A DNA stretch of 64,000 bases from Escherichia virus TH15. Below the pieces are notes generated by a model, which searched no databases, was not told the DNA's origin, and saw nothing but the letters and a program-made list of their open reading frames with translations. The position numbers and the translations under genes are program-made. Positions 1,807 through 42,576 of this stretch are shown here, one piece after another; positions within the stretch are counted from its first letter, which is position 1, and each line of letters begins with the position of its first letter. Location of the stretch: sequence record MT446392.1. One strand, written 5' to 3'.

Positions 1807-4062
1807 ATGCAAGTACAAAAAAGTAGTGGTGTCTCTCAAGATTTTGATGGCCAGAAAATTATTAAAGTTCTTTCCTGGTCATGTGAAGGAACTAATATCG
1901 ACCCGTATGAATTATACGAAACAATCAAACCACATCTGCGCGATGGTATGACTACCCGCGATATTCAGACGGTTATCATCAAAGTGTCTGCTGGGCTTAT
2001 TTCGGTCGAAGAACCGGATTATCAATATGTTGCAGCGAAGGCTACGATGTTTGCTCTGCGTAAAGATGTTTATGGGCAATTCGAGCCACGTTCTTTTATT
2101 GACCAGATTTCTTATTGTGTTAATGAAGGCAAATATGACCCGGAACTGTTGTCAAGCTACTCCGCCGAAGAGATTACTTATCTGGAATCTCGTATCAAGC
2201 ACGAACGCGATTTTGACCTGACTTATGCAGGCGCGATGCAGTTGAAAGAGAAATACCTGGTTAAAGATAAAACCACTGGTAAAATCTACGAGACTCCACA
2301 ATTCGCTATCATGGCTATCGGCATGGCACTGTACCAGGATGAACCAACGGACCGTCTGAAGCACATTTGCCGTTTTTATGATGCAGTATCCACAAGACAG
2401 GTTTCGTTGCCCACACCTATCATGGCGGGCGCCAGAACACCCACCAGGCAGTTCAGTTCCTGCGTGGTTATCGAAGCTGCAGACTCCCTGAAGTCAATCA
2501 ATAAGACTGCCAATTCAATCATCGAATATATCAGTAAGCGTGCGGGTATCGGCATCAACGTTGGTATGATTCGTGCTGAAGGTTCGAAAATCGGTATGGG
2601 TGAAGTTCGTCATACTGGTGTTATTCCGTTCTGGAAACATTTCCAAACGGCTGTTAAATCCTGTTCACAAGGTGGAATCCGTGGCGGCGCTGCTACTGCT
2701 TATTATCCTTTATGGCATTTGGAAGTTGAAAATTTACTCGTTCTGAAGAACAACAAGGGCGTTGAAGAAAACCGCATCAGACATATGGACTATGGTGTCC
2801 AGTTGAATAACATGATGATGGAACGTCTGGCTAAGAATGATTACATCACTCTGTTTAGTCCACATGAAGCTGGTGGTGAATTGTATTATTCATATTTTGA
2901 TAACCCGGATAAATTCCGCGAGTTATATGAAGCCTTAGAAAAAGACCCGACAGTTCGTAAGAAACGTATCAAAGCAAAAGACCTGTTCGAATTATTCATG
3001 ACCGAACGTTCCGGCACTGCCCGAGTTTATCCACAGTTCGTTGATAACGTGAATGACTATACTCCGTTCATCCGCGATAAGGCTCCGATTCGTCAATCAA
3101 ACCTTTGTTGTGAAATTGCAATCCCGACTACTGATGTAAACAGCGAAGATGCTGAAATCGGATTGTGCACATTGTCTGCATTTGTTCTGGATAGTTTTGA
3201 CTGGCAGGACCAAGATAAGATTAACGAGCTGGCTGAAGTTCAAGTTCGTGCTCTTGATAATCTGTTGGACTACCAAGGTTATCCGGTTAAAGAAGCTCTG
3301 AAAGCCAAAAAACGTCGCAACTTGGGCGTTGGTGTTACCAACTACGCTGCATGGCTGGCAAGCAATTTCGCTTCCTACGCCGATGCAAACGATTTAACCC
3401 ATGAATTATTTGAGAGATTACAATATGGCCTTATCCGAGCATCCATCAAGCTCGCCAAAGAAAAAGGACCTTGCGAATATTATTCAGACACTCGTTGGGC
3501 TCGAGGCGAATTACCTATCGACTGGTACAATAAAAAGATTGACCAAATCGCAGCTCCAAACTACGTTTGTGACTGGGCGCAGCTGCGGGAAGACCTGGTT
3601 GCACATGGCATCCGTAATAGCACCTTATCTGCGCTCATGCCTTGCGAGTCGAGCAGCCAAGTTTCAAATAGTACCAACGGTATCGAACCTCCGCGTGGTC
3701 CAGTAAGTATTAAGGAAAGTAAAGAAGGTTCCTTTAACCAGGTTGTTCCAAATATCGAGCATAATAAAGGATTGTACGATTACGCATGGGTACTGGCTAA
3801 ACAAGGTAATAAACCTTATCTGACTCAAGTCGCGATTATGTTGAAATGGATTTGTCAGTCAGCATCAGCAAACACTTATTATGACCCGCAGAATTATCCG
3901 AAAGGAAAAGTTCCGATGTCAGTTATGCTTGACGACTTGATGTACGGTTGGTATTATGGAATCAAGAATTTTTACTATCACAATACTCGTGATGGCTCGG
4001 GAACTGACGATTACGAATTGGAAATGCCAAAAGCTGATGATTGCTCGGCATGTAAACTGTAA
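1807..4062 (+). CDS. nrdA: ribonucleotide reductase large subunit
   Basis: 751-aa ORF (T4 NrdA is about 754 aa); RBS GAGGAAAA; position after td. Confidence 0.93.
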   Translation: MQVQKSSGVSQDFDGQKIIKVLSWSCEGTNIDPYELYETIKPHLRDGMTTRDIQTVIIKVSAGLISVEEPDYQYVAAKATMFALRKDVYGQFEPRSFIDQISYCVNEGKYDPELLSSYSAEEITYLESRIKHERDFDLTYAGAMQLKEKYLVKDKTTGKIYETPQFAIMAIGMALYQDEPTDRLKHICRFYDAVSTRQVSLPTPIMAGARTPTRQFSSCVVIEAADSLKSINKTANSIIEYISKRAGIGINVGMIRAEGSKIGMGEVRHTGVIPFWKHFQTAVKSCSQGGIRGGAATAYYPLWHLEVENLLVLKNNKGVEENRIRHMDYGVQLNNMMMERLAKNDYITLFSPHEAGGELYYSYFDNPDKFRELYEALEKDPTVRKKRIKAKDLFELFMTERSGTARVYPQFVDNVNDYTPFIRDKAPIRQSNLCCEIAIPTTDVNSEDAEIGLCTLSAFVLDSFDWQDQDKINELAEVQVRALDNLLDYQGYPVKEALKAKKRRNLGVGVTNYAAWLASNFASYADANDLTHELFERLQYGLIRASIKLAKEKGPCEYYSDTRWARGELPIDWYNKKIDQIAAPNYVCDWAQLREDLVAHGIRNSTLSALMPCESSSQVSNSTNGIEPPRGPVSIKESKEGSFNQVVPNIEHNKGLYDYAWVLAKQGNKPYLTQVAIMLKWICQSASANTYYDPQNYPKGKVPMSVMLDDLMYGWYYGIKNFYYHNTRDGSGTDDYELEMPKADDCSACKL

Positions 4063-36508: not shown

Positions 36509-36537
36509 TTTTGCTTCAAATAAAATTGTGGTATAAT
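36509..36537 (+). promoter_or_regulatory. MotA-type middle promoter for rnlB
   Basis: tTTGCTTcA 36509-36517, 14-nt spacer, TATAAT 36532-36537, then GGTTCTAGACCC cassette. Confidence 0.5.
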
Positions 36538-36634
36538 GGTTCTAGACCCTTTGAGACTATTAATTCCTTTCAGAGAAAGAAAGTATAGTGGGTCTAATTT
36601 ATAATGATATTTATAACATCAAAAGTGAGAGAAT

Positions 36635-37639
36635 ATGTTTAAGAAATATAACAGCCTTGAAAATCACTATAACAACAAGTTCATTGAAAAGATTCGCCTG
36701 CAAGGCTTCACCAGCGGTGAATGGGTAGCTCGTGAGAAAATTCATGGTACCAACTTTTCATTAATTATTGAACAAAATAATGTGACATGTGCGAAACGCA
36801 CTGGACCTATCCTACCTGCAGAAGATTTCTATGGCTACGAAATTGTACTCAAGAACTATGCAGATTCCATTAAAACTGTGCAGAGACTTTTACAGGATAT
36901 TAATTACCAATCATACCAAATTTATGGTGAGTTTGCTGGTACAGGTATCCAGAAGAATGTGGATTATGGCGACAAAGATTTCTATGTGTTTGATATCCGC
37001 GTTACTAAGGAAGATGGCTCTGAATCTGTTTTGACTGATTCATTGATGGAAGCCTTCTGTATTATCCATAAATTTAAGGTTGCCCCACGCCTGGCTACGG
37101 GTAGTTTTGAAGACTTGATTAAGCTCCCTAACGACCTGGATTCTGTGGTTCCTGATTACAATTTTACAGTAGATAATGCGGGTTTGACTACCGCGAATAC
37201 CACCGATTTTGACGCAAAGGTTGAAGGTAAAGTATTCACTGCAGAAGGGTATGTTCTTAAACCTGATACTCCTGCCTGGTTACCTAATGGTGAGCGCGTA
37301 GCGATTAAATGTAAGAACTCTAAATTCAGCGAAAAGAAAAAGTCTGATAAGCCTATCAAGGCTGCTGTTGTGTTGTCCCAGGAAGACCTGGACATTTTAT
37401 GGAAGTTTACCGATTATGTGACTGTTAACCGTATCAATAATGTTATCAGTAAAATTGGGGAAGTAACGCCAAAGGATTTTGGAAAGGTAATGGGTTTGAC
37501 TGTTCAAGATATTTTGGAAGAAGCGGGTCGGGAAGGCCTTGAATTAACCCAAACGGAAAATCCTGTTGAAGTTAAAAAGCAACTCATTGCAAATGTAAGA
37601 GATACATTAAGACATGTTTGGATTGCATTAATTAGTTAA
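36635..37639 (+). CDS. rnlB: RNA ligase 2
   Basis: 334-aa ORF, same length as T4 Rnl2; KIHGTN adenylation motif; near-identical N-terminus to T4 Rnl2 as recalled. Confidence 0.9.
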
Positions 37640-37640
37640 T

Positions 37641-37668
37641 AAAAAAGGGCCGCAAGGCCCTTATTCTT
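37641..37668. terminator. bidirectional terminator (GGGCCGCAAGGCCC)
   Basis: Hairpin flanked by A-run and T-run between convergent rnlB and the gene 24 paralog. Confidence 0.7.
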
Positions 37669-38944
37669 TTTCCAGTGGTGGAAGTTTAACACCAAGATAA
37701 GAACTCAATTGGCTTTGGTTAGCCATCTTATCCATATCAGCCCCATCAATAATGCGAGCTTCTTTATCGTCTTTAGCAACGGTATAAGGGTTCGCAGTCA
37801 GTGCATAACGAGCTAACAGTGCAACTGTAGGCTGTAAACTTTCAGGGTCAACGATAACCTTGAATTCCCCAACCGAGGTGTCACCCTCATCATCAACTTC
37901 ACTAAGACCTTCCGTATAAGGCGCATAATACAAAGATGCGACCGTCTGACCTTCACCCATATCGGCATTTACGCCAACAATAACATAATCGCATGGGCTA
38001 TTCATATCTGCATAAAGCGGCAAACCGTTCTTCAGAACGCCATAGGCCAATTCATCCTGGTCGTCCTTTTTCTCAACCCAACCAGAAGCTGCTAAAATAG
38101 CTGCACACCGGGAAGAGGCAACTGCATATGTACCAGCGAACGAAGTCTGACGTTGAACTGCGGAATTCATTTCGCACATATAATAATACAGGGTTCGAGC
38201 CCGGTCTTGCGCATTATCATATCTCGGGTCGGTAAGATTCAATACACCTTTTTCAGAAACACCTTGTACCTTGAAGCGGGAACTAACAGTAATAAGGGAT
38301 TGCAGTACGTCCTTATTAATTTCCTCTGCCATTTGAATGCCAAGGATATTATCAATAAAATCTGTTGCGTCGAAACCATTTGCTTCCAGGTCCTGAGCAA
38401 GCTCAACAGTTAAAGAGGTTTTCAGTTTTCTGGATTTGACTTCGGTCTGCCATTTATCGATACGGAAACCGGCTTCAGCAATTTCAGGATGACCCTGTTC
38501 AAATTTATTAGTGAAAGCTGCATCCGACATCATTCTTATATGGCCAGCAGCAATGGCTTCAGAAATAACTTCACCCAAATCAGTTTCAAGGGTCCCAGCA
38601 AAAGGAGAAGCTTCCAAAACTTTGAATACAACGCTTTCGAACTGGAACATATCGCCGACTGCATAAGCTTCGTCTTTATTTGTAAATTCTGGGATATTCT
38701 TACGCTCGAACATGCCAATCTGGCCTGCAAATGTTGCTCCACCAAGATATGTCATTTTATCATCTGGGTTCAGAACACGAACACCATACAACGCTGCAAC
38801 AGGCTGGGTAGTTTTCTGTTCGGCAACGAGTGCTTTAAAAATTCGTTTATTCGTAGCCTGGGTATAAGAAAGCAAATTAGGACGGGCGACCTGGTTGGCC
38901 GCCGTTAATGTTGATTCGTGAATTAGTGCGTTAATCTTTTGCAT
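37661..38944 (-). CDS. capsid vertex protein paralog (gp24-like, divergent copy)
   Basis: 427-aa ORF, roughly 55% identical by eye to the adjacent gp24; starts immediately after gp24 stop (TAAATG) with GAGG RBS inside the upstream gene. Confidence 0.8.
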   Translation of the reverse strand: MQKINALIHESTLTAANQVARPNLLSYTQATNKRIFKALVAEQKTTQPVAALYGVRVLNPDDKMTYLGGATFAGQIGMFERKNIPEFTNKDEAYAVGDMFQFESVVFKVLEASPFAGTLETDLGEVISEAIAAGHIRMMSDAAFTNKFEQGHPEIAEAGFRIDKWQTEVKSRKLKTSLTVELAQDLEANGFDATDFIDNILGIQMAEEINKDVLQSLITVSSRFKVQGVSEKGVLNLTDPRYDNAQDRARTLYYYMCEMNSAVQRQTSFAGTYAVASSRCAAILAASGWVEKKDDQDELAYGVLKNGLPLYADMNSPCDYVIVGVNADMGEGQTVASLYYAPYTEGLSEVDDEGDTSVGEFKVIVDPESLQPTVALLARYALTANPYTVAKDDKEARIIDGADMDKMANQSQLSSYLGVKLPPLEKE

Positions 38945-40225
38945 TTACGCCTCATAAATGATTGGCGGAAGTTTAACACCGAGCAGATAAGACATATTGC
39001 TCTGGCCGGCCATTAAATCCATATTAGTTGCATCGATAATACGAGCTTCTTTGTCGTCTTTAGCAACGGTGTAAGGGTTAGCTGAAAGTGCATATCGAAC
39101 CATCAGGGAGATAGATGGCTGCAAGCTGTCTGGGTCCACAATGACCTTAAATGCACCTACGTGTTCTTCATCATCTAAGTCCAGGCCTTCGGTATAAGGA
39201 GCATAGAAGATTGAGCCTACGACTTCGTTTCCGCCATAATTTTCTTTAACGCCAACGGTTACATAATCTAATGGACTGTTAACATCACAGAATACAGGAA
39301 GACCATTAATCAAATAACCATACGCGGTTTCCGGGAGCCATTGTTCATCTTCAGGTTTATGTTTCAACCAACCGGAACCGGCGAGCATCGCGGCCACACG
39401 ACTTGAGGCAACAACGAATGTACCAGAGTAAGATGTAGTTTTCTGAATTTCAGAGTTCATTTCGCACACCAGTTCGTACAGTTTACGTGCGCCTTCTGGA
39501 GCTGAATCATATGTCAAATCGATGAAACCTTTATCAGAAACGCCAGTGACTTTATAACGCTTGGAAACGGTAATCAGAGACTGAAGAACATCTTTGTTAA
39601 TTTCATCTGCCATAGTAGTTGCAAGCAGGTCTTCCAGGAAAGCAGGAGCATTAAAACCGTTTGCTTCCATATCCTGTGCAAGTTCAACAGTCAGTGCAGT
39701 TTTCAATTTACGGGATTTAACAGGAGCATTCCATTTATTAACCTGGAATACAGCGTTACTAATTTCAACATCACCAGCTTCAAATTTCTCGGTGTGTGCA
39801 GCATCAGGAACTAAACGAATAGTCGATGCAATAAGACCTTCTTGCAGAACATCAGATAATACTGTTTCTGTAGTCGTTGCAAATGGATTATCCACCAGAG
39901 CTTTGTAAACGATATTTTGATATTTTACATATTCGCCTTTAGCAACAGGTTGAGTAGCTGTAGCTAATTCTGGAATAGTTGTACGGTCTTTAGAACCGAC
40001 TTCACCACCATAAGTAGCACCAGTCTGGAAACTGAATTCATTATCAGGAGTAAGATATTTAACACCGTACAGCGCAGCAACAGGCTGGTTAGTACGTTGT
40101 TCAGCGATGATATCGCGGTAAATCAATTTAGTTGTAGCGCGGGTCAAAGCAACAAGATTCGGGCGGCCTAATGAGTTGCTGGATGTAGTAGTTGACTCGC
40201 GCAGCAGTTCGTTAATCTTTGCCAT
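38945..40225 (-). CDS. 24: capsid vertex protein gp24
   Basis: 426-aa ORF (T4 gp24 427 aa); N-terminus MAKINELLRESTTT matches T4 gp24 as recalled. Confidence 0.9.
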   Translation of the reverse strand: MAKINELLRESTTTSSNSLGRPNLVALTRATTKLIYRDIIAEQRTNQPVAALYGVKYLTPDNEFSFQTGATYGGEVGSKDRTTIPELATATQPVAKGEYVKYQNIVYKALVDNPFATTTETVLSDVLQEGLIASTIRLVPDAAHTEKFEAGDVEISNAVFQVNKWNAPVKSRKLKTALTVELAQDMEANGFNAPAFLEDLLATTMADEINKDVLQSLITVSKRYKVTGVSDKGFIDLTYDSAPEGARKLYELVCEMNSEIQKTTSYSGTFVVASSRVAAMLAGSGWLKHKPEDEQWLPETAYGYLINGLPVFCDVNSPLDYVTVGVKENYGGNEVVGSIFYAPYTEGLDLDDEEHVGAFKVIVDPDSLQPSISLMVRYALSANPYTVAKDDKEARIIDATNMDLMAGQSNMSYLLGVKLPPIIYEA

Positions 40226-40250
40226 TGCGCTTTCCTTTTGTGATATACTT

Positions 40251-40258
40251 TATTTATA
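40251..40258 (-). promoter_or_regulatory. late promoter TATAAATA for gene 24
   Basis: Exact TATAAATA on - strand 26 nt upstream of ATG. Confidence 0.5.
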
Positions 40259-40264
40259 AAAGTT

Positions 40265-40294
40265 GTTTACACTCTAGTTGAACTGAGTTATAAT
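40265..40294 (+). promoter_or_regulatory. putative early promoter for segD-like gene
   Basis: GTTTAC 40265-40270, 18-nt spacer, TATAAT 40289-40294, then GAGGAG RBS. Confidence 0.45.
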
Positions 40295-40318
40295 TTTGAT
40301 ATTAGAGGAGACTAAATT

Positions 40319-40978
40319 ATGCATTATTTAATTTACAAAATAACTAACTTGATAAATCATAAAATTTATATTGGGGCGCACGCCACAGAAAACGTGTATG
40401 ACTCCTATATGGGGTCGGGAGTCAACATTGTCAAATCCATCAAAAAACATGGTATTAAGAACTTTAAAAAAGAAATTTTGTTTGTTTTTGATACTTCATA
40501 TGAAATGTATGAGAAAGAAGCTGAACTTGTTAATGAACAATTTGTGCTTAGAGCTGATACATACAATGCAGCTATTGGCGGCAAGGGAAATCCAATTATT
40601 GTTAAACTACAAGACCCTTCATACAGAAAAATGATTTCAGAAAAGACAAAAGCAGGTATGACCGTAGAAGTAAAGCGGAAAATATCAATAGCAAAAACAG
40701 GAGTCAAACAGTCACAAGAGCTTATTGATAAACGTACGGCGGGTGTCAAAAAATATTTAGAAACACACCAGCATCACAACAAAAATAAACCAATAAGCGA
40801 TAGCCACCGCAAAGCAATTTCAGAAAAATTAAAAGGGATTAAAAAACTTATTAAGATTTCAATCAAAGGTAAGACTTTTGATAACCCAGATTTTGCTGCT
40901 GAACATTTTGGCGTTTCTCCAAAAACAATACGCAATTGGATAAATTCAGATAAACACCCAGACTGCTTCAAACAATAA
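40319..40978 (+). CDS. segD: GIY-YIG homing endonuclease, SegD-like
   Basis: 219-aa ORF; [25 protein letters not shown] motif, repeated K..G...S.E linker modules, C-terminal HTH-like; between genes 23 and 24 like T4 segD. Confidence 0.78.
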
Positions 40979-41000
40979 AAAAGGGACTCCGAAGAGTCCC
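40977..41000 (-). terminator. rho-independent terminator for gene 23 (GGGACUCUUCGGAGUCCC + U6)
   Basis: Reverse complement of the 14762-14779 hairpin; U-run on - strand overlaps the segD-like stop codon. Confidence 0.75.
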
Positions 41001-41016
41001 TGAAATTTATTAAGGA

Positions 41017-42576
41017 TTAAATTCCCTTAACATATACACGTCTAAAGTAACCGTTCAAGCCGAGGCTGTTAACGATGTCCGGCATACCGTTTTGAATACG
41101 CTTGGTCGGAGCCTGAGCTGCCGGGTCAGCGAACGGGTTAATACCGATACCGTAACGGGTTTTGAAGCCCATAACCGGCTGGAAGTTTTTCGGGTCAGAG
41201 CCACGCAGCGGTGTCAGTGCAACATATGGTGCGTAGTAGATACCAGCATCCATTTCGTTAGCACCTTTGTAACCGATGGTGAAGTAATCTGCGCGAGCAT
41301 ACTGGTCGATATAGACACGGTATTTGCCACCCAGAACACCAGCGAACACAGCTTTAGTGGTGTCAACGTTGAAACCTTTACCCAGACCCTGAGCAGCATA
41401 AGATACGGAGGTATCAACTGCAGCCAGTACGTTAACTACGTTACGGGAAGCGATGATGAAGTTACCTGCACCACGACCGGTCTGACGAGCGATTTCAGCA
41501 GCTTCTTTGTCAATCTGGAACAGTAAAGCTTTGAAGCTTTCACCAGCCCAACGAGCGCCACGGATATCAATCGGGTCCTGGAAGTCAAACACACCAGCTT
41601 TAGCGCCAACGGTGTTGGTCATACCAGATTTACCAACCTGTGCGGAGTAGTTAATCCAATCGATAACTTCGCGGTTGATTTCCAGCATAATTTCAGTAGC
41701 CAGAATACCACTCAATTCAGCATCAGCGTCCATACCGTGAACAGCGCGCAGGTCCTGTGCCAGTTCGATAGAGTAGCTTGCTTTCAGCTGACGGGATTTA
41801 GCTTCGATAACTTGTTTATCGATGCGGAAGCCCATTTCGTTCCACGGGTTATCCTGAGAACCGTTGAAACCTTCCTGCAGTTCGGCGATAGAGGTAGCCA
41901 TACCTTCAGCGATTTCTGCCAGTTTACCAGCTTCGAGCAGTTTGGTAACTTCAGCGTCAAGTTTAGCAGCATCAGTAGCGGCGGCATCAACGGTTACAGC
42001 TTCAACAGCCTGGTAGTGTGCGGAACCGGTTGCTTCGAAGAAGTGAGAATAAATTTTACCAACGGTAAGAACTTTGCTTGCAGCCAGAGCTTCGAAAGCT
42101 TCAGCAGCGCCCTGACCGGAGAACATAGCGTTCGGAGCATACATCGGGTGGAAAGCTTCTTTAGCACCAGCAGCTACAGGGTCTTTACCGTAAACTGCAC
42201 GCAGGGCAAATACCTGGCCAGTCGGGTTGTTCAGAGGCTGGACGCCACAAATATCAAACGCAATCAGATGCGGGATAGCACGACGAACCATACCCATAAC
42301 TGCCGGCCCAATCTGAGTTACTGCACCAGAGGTCTGGCCAGCAGCGATATTGGTAGCATCATAACCATGGTCACCACCGATTTCAGCTTCGGTCAGGAAA
42401 GAACCAAATGCTTCGGAGATTTTTTCGTCACGGTATTCTGGAGCGGTCAGGATATCTTGTTCCTGGTTTTCAAAGATTTTAGCGATGATAGCTTGTTTAG
42501 AAGCACCAACGATTTCAGGAAGAGCTTCATTTTCCAGCAGAGCGGACCATTTTTGTACTAATGCATTCTTTTTCAT
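41017..42576 (-). CDS. 23: major capsid protein
   Basis: 519-aa ORF (T4 gp23 521 aa); synteny and sequence resemblance as recalled. Confidence 0.92.
   Translation of the reverse strand: MKKNALVQKWSALLENEALPEIVGASKQAIIAKIFENQEQDILTAPEYRDEKISEAFGSFLTEAEIGGDHGYDATNIAAGQTSGAVTQIGPAVMGMVRRAIPHLIAFDICGVQPLNNPTGQVFALRAVYGKDPVAAGAKEAFHPMYAPNAMFSGQGAAEAFEALAASKVLTVGKIYSHFFEATGSAHYQAVEAVTVDAAATDAAKLDAEVTKLLEAGKLAEIAEGMATSIAELQEGFNGSQDNPWNEMGFRIDKQVIEAKSRQLKASYSIELAQDLRAVHGMDADAELSGILATEIMLEINREVIDWINYSAQVGKSGMTNTVGAKAGVFDFQDPIDIRGARWAGESFKALLFQIDKEAAEIARQTGRGAGNFIIASRNVVNVLAAVDTSVSYAAQGLGKGFNVDTTKAVFAGVLGGKYRVYIDQYARADYFTIGYKGANEMDAGIYYAPYVALTPLRGSDPKNFQPVMGFKTRYGIGINPFADPAAQAPTKRIQNGMPDIVNSLGLNGYFRRVYVKGI

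Follow-up and report, generated by a model that had tools for sequence, protein, structure and literature searches.

The gap between genes 24 and 23 of phage T4 has been known for decades to hold segD, antisense to both of its neighbours, and homologues in the same slot are already annotated in Dhakavirus (IME08, under the name 'SegD homing endonuclease') and in Gelderlandvirus (CGG4-1). Since the gene, its location and its orientation are all familiar from T4, a further segD at this place carries only limited weight by itself. The accessible part of the literature calls T4 SegD an endonuclease, site-specific double-strand cleavage is reported for it, and a 2010 review of the mobile elements of T4 stated that no segD-specific promoter was identifiable in that phage and that a very low transcript level was to be expected (PMC2988022). 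Two other described systems resemble parts of such a locus. I-TevI, the endonuclease of the T4 td intron, combines an N-terminal GIY-YIG fold with a C-terminal DNA-binding domain that includes a helix-turn-helix. In the promoter-early stem-loop (PeSL) cassettes of T4-type phages (Arbiol et al. 2010; Comeau et al. 2014), a variable ORF is bracketed by an early promoter and a GC-rich stem-loop, and by definition the motif is repeated at many sites of hyperplastic regions, with mini-circles arising by recombination. What the locus described here adds is a conserved early promoter in front of the slot in five genera, and the observation that segD always ends in the tail of the gene 23 terminator, so that termination of gene 23 is never disturbed.

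The window, by which we mean the whole stretch of 64,000 nucleotides of Escherichia virus TH15 that was analysed, has a Gaprivervirus-like backbone with 96% identity to VR26, 95% to VR25 and 93% to VR7 over 22 kb. The head gene block on its minus strand, at 36.6-44.1 kb, is of the T4 type, with the order rnlB, two copies of gene 24, gene 23, gene 22 and gene 21 (coordinates in Table 1). At the nucleotide level, gene 24 copy 1 is 98-100% identical to 24(1) of VR7, and gene 23 reaches the same 98-100% with VR7, VR25 and VR26 past position 41092. The 791 nt between these two genes contain one plus-strand ORF of 219 codons with an ATG start, and it is most likely that this ORF is a functional orthologue of segD and the current cargo of a slot for small, antisense, early-transcribed cassettes in the gene 24/23 gap of Tevenvirinae. 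Two minus-strand ORFs within segD (114 aa and 65 aa) found no support and were set aside. In a collection of 50,697 phage genomes, no record covered the region 40100-41150 to at least 80%, and relatives matched its flanks only. The tandem gene 24 paralogues, with segD adjoining copy 1, abut without a spacer and share 55% protein identity; such a tandem is known for the lineage, with 24(1)/24(2) annotated in VR7 and 24a in JS98.

Table 1. Features of the gene 24/23 slot and its surroundings in the window
Feature	Position	Strand	Basis or remark
rnlB	36635-37639	+	
Gene 24, second tandem copy	37661-38944	-	
Gene 24 copy 1, coding for the head vertex protein, to the left of the slot	38945-40225	-	Pfam Gp23, E 3.4e-99
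Gene 24 late promoter TATAAATA	40251-40258	-	exact match; reads TATTTATA on the plus strand
Predicted early promoter (sigma-70 / T4-early type), TTTACA-17-TATAAT	40266-40294	+	11/12 consensus matches
RBS GAGGAG	40305-40310	+	8 nt 5' of the ATG, read from the sequence
segD orthologue, putative GIY-YIG endonuclease	40319-40978	+	Pfam, PHROG, family alignment, AlphaFold/Foldseek, dN/dS
T-tract in the terminator of gene 23 (minus strand: UUUUUUAUUG)	40972-40981	-	holds the complement of the segD stop
Imported patch: terminator, spacer and last 28-75 nt of gene 23	40979-41091		identical to TH57 through 41085, unlike the VR7-type backbone
Terminator hairpin AGGGACTC-CGAA-GAGTCCCT	40982-41001	both	8-bp stem; the loop reads UUCG for gene 23 (minus strand) and CGAA for segD
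Gene 23, coding for the major capsid protein, to the right of the slot	41017-42576	-	Pfam Gp23, E 1.7e-122

The preliminary description had taken the ORF for a segD-like GIY-YIG gene, and this is borne out. By its sequence, the ORF is the orthologue of T4 segD, in the same slot and orientation, and 158 of 218 residues (72.5%) are identical to T4 SegD in an ungapped alignment over the full length, the C-terminal DNA-binding domain included. A T4-type SegD is also the best match found by tblastn in the 50,697 genomes, at only 72.5% identity, and in comparison with T4 the window carries a divergent allele, while its Gaprivervirus-like backbone has gene 24 in two copies. An identical protein is encoded on one NCBI contig (171.6 kb) and in one Logan assembly, and alleles of the window type, with 94-95% nucleotide identity and identical junctions, occur in three further metagenome lineages. 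Homologues at E <= 1e-20 number 718 and are conserved over the full length. PHROG 314 ('homing endonuclease') matches the protein with E 8.7e-50, and the Pfam family SegE_GIY-YIG (PF19835) does so with E 1.5e-5 and 25.7 bits, the cut-off being 25. The motifs LIY (residues 4-6) and YIG (17-19) lie within the first ~20 residues, where GIY and YIG belong, and Y6, Y17, G19, E67 and N83 are invariant among 32 homologues. Judged by the order of the motifs and the fold match rather than by a residue-level superposition, E67 and N83 may be the counterparts of E75 and N90 of I-TevI. Between G19 and G45, the 32-sequence alignment has no invariant Arg that could correspond to R27 of I-TevI; invariant in this stretch are H21, T23, D28, Y30 and G32-S33-G34, K43 is nearly so, and T4 SegD has the same Arg-less pattern.

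An AlphaFold model built on the 32-sequence alignment has a mean pLDDT of 84.9, with 88-96 across residues 1-80, and the two best PDB matches of this model in Foldseek are both halves of I-TevI, namely the catalytic domain (1mk0/1ln0; target-normalised TM 0.65-0.68) and the DNA-binding domain (1i3j), with a probability of 1.00. The model suggests that the catalytic domain extends over about residues 1-90 and that a helical linker connects it to a DNA-binding domain at the C-terminus. The latter contains a helix-turn-helix and has 36% identity to its I-TevI counterpart over 69 columns; T4 SegD has the same two-domain, I-TevI-like architecture. Unlike I-TevI, the window SegD is free-standing and not intron-encoded, a zinc-finger linker was not detected in it, and R27 has no evident counterpart in the alignment. 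All this points to a free-standing, I-TevI-like, site-specific DNA endonuclease of the GIY-YIG type, the nuclease activity itself being predicted from alignment and model.

A decaying remnant of a once mobile gene, or a chance ORF without present function, would be compatible with a Pfam score that is barely over the threshold and with the absence of an invariant Arg at the position expected for GIY-YIG enzymes. Such a reading is nevertheless highly improbable, as it is contradicted by the full-length conservation in 718 homologues, by the invariance of the catalytic Tyr, Glu and Asn positions, by the confident two-domain model that matches I-TevI, by a near-consensus promoter with a good RBS, and by the selection that acts on the gene. 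Among three diverged copies of the window-type allele, the dN/dS of segD is 0.05-0.11, with gene 23 at 0.07 and gene 24 at 0.06, and the dS of 0.27 lies between the 0.155 and 0.32 of the flanking genes. The low dN/dS indicates that the protein is functional and not decaying, and segD has, as these rates tell, co-diverged with its neighbours under strong purifying selection.

The start codon of the window segD is supported by M1, which is invariant in the family alignment of 32 sequences. In the annotated T4 SegD (MFKM...; T4 locus 2992-3001), this family-invariant Met is residue 4, and the T4 annotation is probably three codons too long. The remark in the review that the RBS of T4 segD lies 2 nt from the AUG (PMC2988022) concerns the upstream ATG. 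One representative of a SegD cluster (P0002) is 13 residues too long.

On its left side, the slot begins with the early promoter, which is divergent from and back to back with the late promoter of gene 24. The latter has its counterpart at this position in 16 of 17 loci, and in the fPS-90 record the corresponding site is annotated as a predicted late promoter. The two hexamers of the early promoter and their 17-nt spacing (TTTACA-N17-TAnnAT) are conserved in 16 of the 17 loci as well, with a variable spacer sequence, and they are present whatever the cargo is: segD, an unrelated 93-aa ORF (orf93), both of these, or none, as in the empty slot of dhaeg. The preliminary description had credited segD with an early promoter and an RBS of its own. 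A strong promoter of the early type and an RBS are indeed there, but as the promoter is kept regardless of the cargo, it is a property of the slot and not of segD. Its conservation across loci is comparative evidence for a genuine early promoter with a predicted transcription start, and its occurrence in front of the slot in five genera contradicts the statement that segD has no identifiable promoter (PMC2988022). T4 segD, too, has a promoter-like TTTACA-N17 site upstream; compared with T4, the window has the better -10 hexamer (TATAAT, in T4 TATTAT) and the better RBS and spacing (GAGGAG, 8 nt). A pattern scan of 40259-40978 revealed no late or middle promoters that would tie segD to the expression of gene 24 in the way known from segG. 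The early promoter also fits the PeSL promoter consensus of T4 and PST, TTTACW-N17-TAYWAT (PMC4122927), and this pattern has four matches on the plus strand and none on the minus strand of the 64-kb window.

On its right side, the slot is bounded by the terminator of gene 23. The hairpin begins 15 nt past the stop codon of gene 23 and reads GGGACUC(UUCG)GAGUCCC on the minus strand, followed by UUUUUUAUUGUUUG, and thus has a stem with a C(UUCG)G tetraloop. An energy of -16.3 kcal/mol is predicted for the hairpin (z = -3.4 versus shuffles), which should be stable on both strands, with a weak T-run past it on the segD strand (UGAAAUUUAUU). The hairpin probably ends both convergent transcripts, in a predicted bidirectional termination. 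An Rfam scan gave only sub-threshold chance matches that were rejected, one of them TarB on the hairpin, with 33 bits against a gathering score of 80, another a snoRNA model.

It had been noted before that the stop codon of segD lies in the U-tract of this terminator, and this is correct. Only AAA separates the TAA at 40976-40978 from the hairpin, the complement of this stop (UUA) forms positions 4-6 of the U-tract of gene 23, and these 3 nt are all that the coding sequence of segD shares with the terminator. In all nine segD loci compared (from T4, IME08, OM632671 and metagenome contigs), the stop codon is 1-12 nt away from the hairpin and within the terminator tail, so that the overlap is a trait of the whole family and no peculiarity of TH15; in T4, the stop is directly followed by the run of A that leads into a C(UUCG)G terminator hairpin. 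The hairpin is kept at the right edge of the slot in every locus, with stems that differ in a compensating manner (GGGACTC, GGGAACC, GGGACC, GGGAGAC), and since the segD frame simply extends as far as the run of A that precedes the hairpin, the terminator stays intact despite the insertion. The further proposal that the shared terminator favours the retention of segD finds no support, as only the stop codon overlaps the T-tract, and as T-tract and hairpin are kept in working-looking form by alleles without segD, namely by TH57, which retains CAATAAAAAAGGG, by dhaeg, by ~25 Gapriverviruses with orf93, and by ~90% of Tequatroviruses.

Between these two edges, the slot occurs in five states: segD, orf93, orf93 together with segD, promoter only, and minimal. 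SegD alone is found in T4, in CGG4-1 and in two metagenome lineages. The 93-aa ORF, which is unrelated to segD (VR7ORF190c, PHROG 6003; VR7 locus 3232-3513), is the only cargo in VR7, VR25, VR26, phage 212, SP18 and ~20 other Gapriverviruses (~25 in all), and ORFs of PHROG 6003 with 88-93 aa are an alternative or an additional cargo of the slot. They are additional in IME08, in mobillu (Mosigvirus) and in OM632671, where orf93 is followed by a segD of a second lineage. In slot, strand and terminator-tail stop, the segD of IME08 and mobillu agrees with that of the window, but their SegD is only ~60% identical to it, and the gene is co-transcribed behind the 88-93-aa ORF without a separate promoter, starting 3 nt after this ORF in IME08-type phages. 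IME08 is at the same time the closest relative of the window backbone that carries a segD (gp23 97%), and this separate SegD lineage has itself moved between genera. Altogether, segD occupies the slot across five Tevenvirinae genera, and it does so on the same strand in eight other loci.

Two kinds of empty slots exist. In dhaeg, only promoter and hairpin are left as a scar, ~25 nt apart, whereas the late-promoter region and the hairpin are all that TH57 has. The minimal state of TH57 is shared by about 90% of Tequatroviruses, RB14, RB32, AR1 and fPS-90 among them, and the T4 segD region is covered to at least 80% in only 53 of the ~500 records that match at 95% or more. The alternative to segD is an empty minimal spacer in T4-like phages and the 93-aa ORF among the relatives of the window. 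In TH57 (MT446422, a record marked UNVERIFIED), ~715 nt with early promoter and segD are replaced by TCC (TH57 locus 3126-3200, corresponding to window 40258-40972), with the terminator of the window kept exactly, and it is the only record with this type of empty junction among the 50,697. Neither the window-type nor the TH57-type junction had an exact match in a scan of viral contigs. The idea that TH57 is a plain deletion derivative of the window allele was not retained, as the direction is ambiguous and fPS-90 has the same minimal layout of late promoter and terminator; a secondary deletion is favoured by the late promoter of gene 24 (TATAAATA), which in TH57 has lost its initial T. The window phage with segD, phage 212 with orf93 and TH57 with an empty slot have one terminator in common, and with these natural cognate alleles a clean genetic test is possible.

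An insert that is common to all relatives and shows no sign of mobility is not what the comparison of relatives, as it had been proposed, brings to light, because close relatives lack segD and there is evidence for exchange. Sporadic presence among close relatives and a phylogeny at odds with the host genes are both seen for segD: the SegD identities pair the window with T4 (72%) and IME08 with OM632671 (91%), whereas those of gp23/gp24 pair the window with IME08 (97%/90%) and T4 with OM632671 (97%/95%). IME08 and mobillu share a patch inside the cassette with 98-100% nucleotide identity, and their flanks are 65-75% identical. In the window, the left flank of the slot is of the VR7 type up to the -35 hexamer, and to the right of the cassette the informative sites are of the TH57 type to 41044 and of the VR7 type from 41092, which places a crossover between 41045 and 41091. 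The patch from 40979 to ~41044-41091 is of other ancestry than the rest of gene 23, and the cassette, the terminator and 28-75 nt of gene 23 accordingly differ in origin from the remaining backbone; ordinary recombination would explain the patch as well as co-conversion would. The conflict between SegD and capsid-gene phylogenies and the patch at the end of gene 23 together indicate that the cassette moves, and this evidence is equally compatible with homing driven by the endonuclease and with ordinary recombination in flanks that are conserved.

In classical homing, SegD would cut in or beside genes 23 and 24 of co-infecting phages without segD, and repair would copy the cassette with short flanks. 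This would account for a patchy spread into one and the same slot, and it agrees with the presence/absence polymorphism among close relatives, with the constant insertion slot in five genera, with the conflict between SegD phylogeny and backbone, with the short patch next to segD that looks co-converted, and with a nuclease kept intact by purifying selection. Tequatroviruses with segD (5/5) and without it (6/6) furthermore have two distinct haplotypes of the whole intergenic region, which differ, among other things, in the leader of gene 24, in the stem of the hairpin and in the spacer. Linked to these haplotypes, the final codons of gene 23 show three synonymous changes, with TTTAGACGT in the genomes with segD and TTCCGCCGT in five of the six without it; the window is of the T4 type here. 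It is also in favour of homing that the other Seg enzymes of T4 have their cleavage sites inside or next to the adjoining gene (table in PMC2988022). Yet the sole experimental study, in its accessible part, reports that T4 SegD does not initiate homing (Sokolov et al. 2018), and several observations at the sequence level point in the same direction. The gene 23 haplotype that is linked to segD occurs as well in TH57, phage 212, VR25 and ESH35, all of them without segD, and is absent from segD carriers of the IME08 type, and the synonymous cluster was therefore rejected as a mark of a SegD target or of immunity. A selective sweep of segD is unconvincing, since its nucleotide diversity in five Tequatroviruses (0.011) is only about half of that of the flanks (0.020-0.023). 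It also counts against homing that the cleavage site of SegD is reportedly identical in phages with and without segD. The cassette of the window, finally, seems to have replaced another ORF instead of entering an empty site. On balance, we regard homing as rather unlikely.

Alternatively, the cassette could be passive cargo that is shuffled in a PeSL-like manner by ordinary homologous recombination between the conserved promoter on one side and the terminator and gene 23 on the other, with SegD being kept for a benefit other than homing, such as the cutting of competitor or host DNA or a role as a DNA-binding regulator. This is plausible, if somewhat short of an even chance. Like in the PeSL cassettes, an early promoter that fits the consensus (PMC4122927) and a GC-rich stem-loop bracket a variable ORF, and indels and replacements among relatives are found exactly there. 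Promoter and hairpin flank the slot whatever its cargo is, including the dhaeg scar, the left breakpoint coincides with the shared -35 region, and the slot has five states. A dN/dS as low as that of the capsid genes and a dS within the range of the flanks fit a long residence and not a repeated re-invasion, and no homing has been reported for T4 in the accessible part of the experimental work. On the other hand, a benefit of SegD is not known, purifying selection would be expected for an actively homing element too, and the right-hand breakpoints are inside gene 23 or inside the cassette and not at the hairpin. Also, PeSLs are by definition repeated motifs in hyperplastic regions, and the promoter pattern has only four matches in the window; unlike a PeSL, the slot lies within a conserved block of structural genes, antisense to its neighbours, and its stem-loop is the terminator of a gene on the opposite strand.

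The selection on segD, being as strong as on the capsid genes, makes the reported lack of homing more puzzling. A tentative and, in our view, doubtful way out is that SegD has ceased to be a selfish homing gene and has been domesticated, as an endonuclease or as a DNA-binding protein, because it is of use to the Tevenvirinae themselves. It would then be expressed from the conserved early promoter, which work on T4 had overlooked, and exchanged between genera as a promoter-to-terminator cassette. Its role might for instance be the cutting of competing phages or a regulation of the 23/24 region. If true, this would reconcile a purifying selection like that of capsid genes with the published failure of T4 SegD to home.

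For a functional segD as current cargo of an antisense cassette slot, the events can be envisaged as follows. The left edge of the slot would be the conserved early promoter, which points away from the adjoining late promoter of gene 24, and the right edge the hairpin of the gene 23 terminator. Early in infection, as far as the timing can be judged from the promoter type, the host RNA polymerase would initiate at ~40301, and the mRNA would be translated from the GAGGAG RBS. Transcription of segD would end at the hairpin, so that little antisense RNA is expected to enter gene 23, and late in infection the transcripts of gene 23 would halt at the same hairpin from the opposite side. Recombination has probably brought the cassette into a VR7-like backbone, along with the terminator and a few dozen bases from the end of gene 23, and the incoming cassette would then have replaced the 93-aa ORF of the relatives; alternatively, orf93 may have displaced segD in the relatives.

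Some further observations concern the surroundings of the slot. In a comparison of 11 Tequatroviruses, gene 24 is invariant (100% identity) over its first ~165 nt, while the rest of the sampled gene has ~2% diversity; this invariance of the 5' end could reflect selection, homogenisation by conversion, or a SegD site. Farther to the left, a middle promoter-like sequence with a MotA box (TGCTTCA ... TATAAT) lies upstream of rnlB at 36512-36537 on the plus strand, and immediately ahead of the rnlB start stands TATTTATA at 36608-36615, a late-promoter match on the minus strand. Between the metagenome contig L019 and the window, identity is 92-98% from gene 24 to gene 21 and only 72% in rnlB (L019 1-814, window 36829-37639), and the boundary of this mosaic falls between rnlB and gene 24 copy 2.
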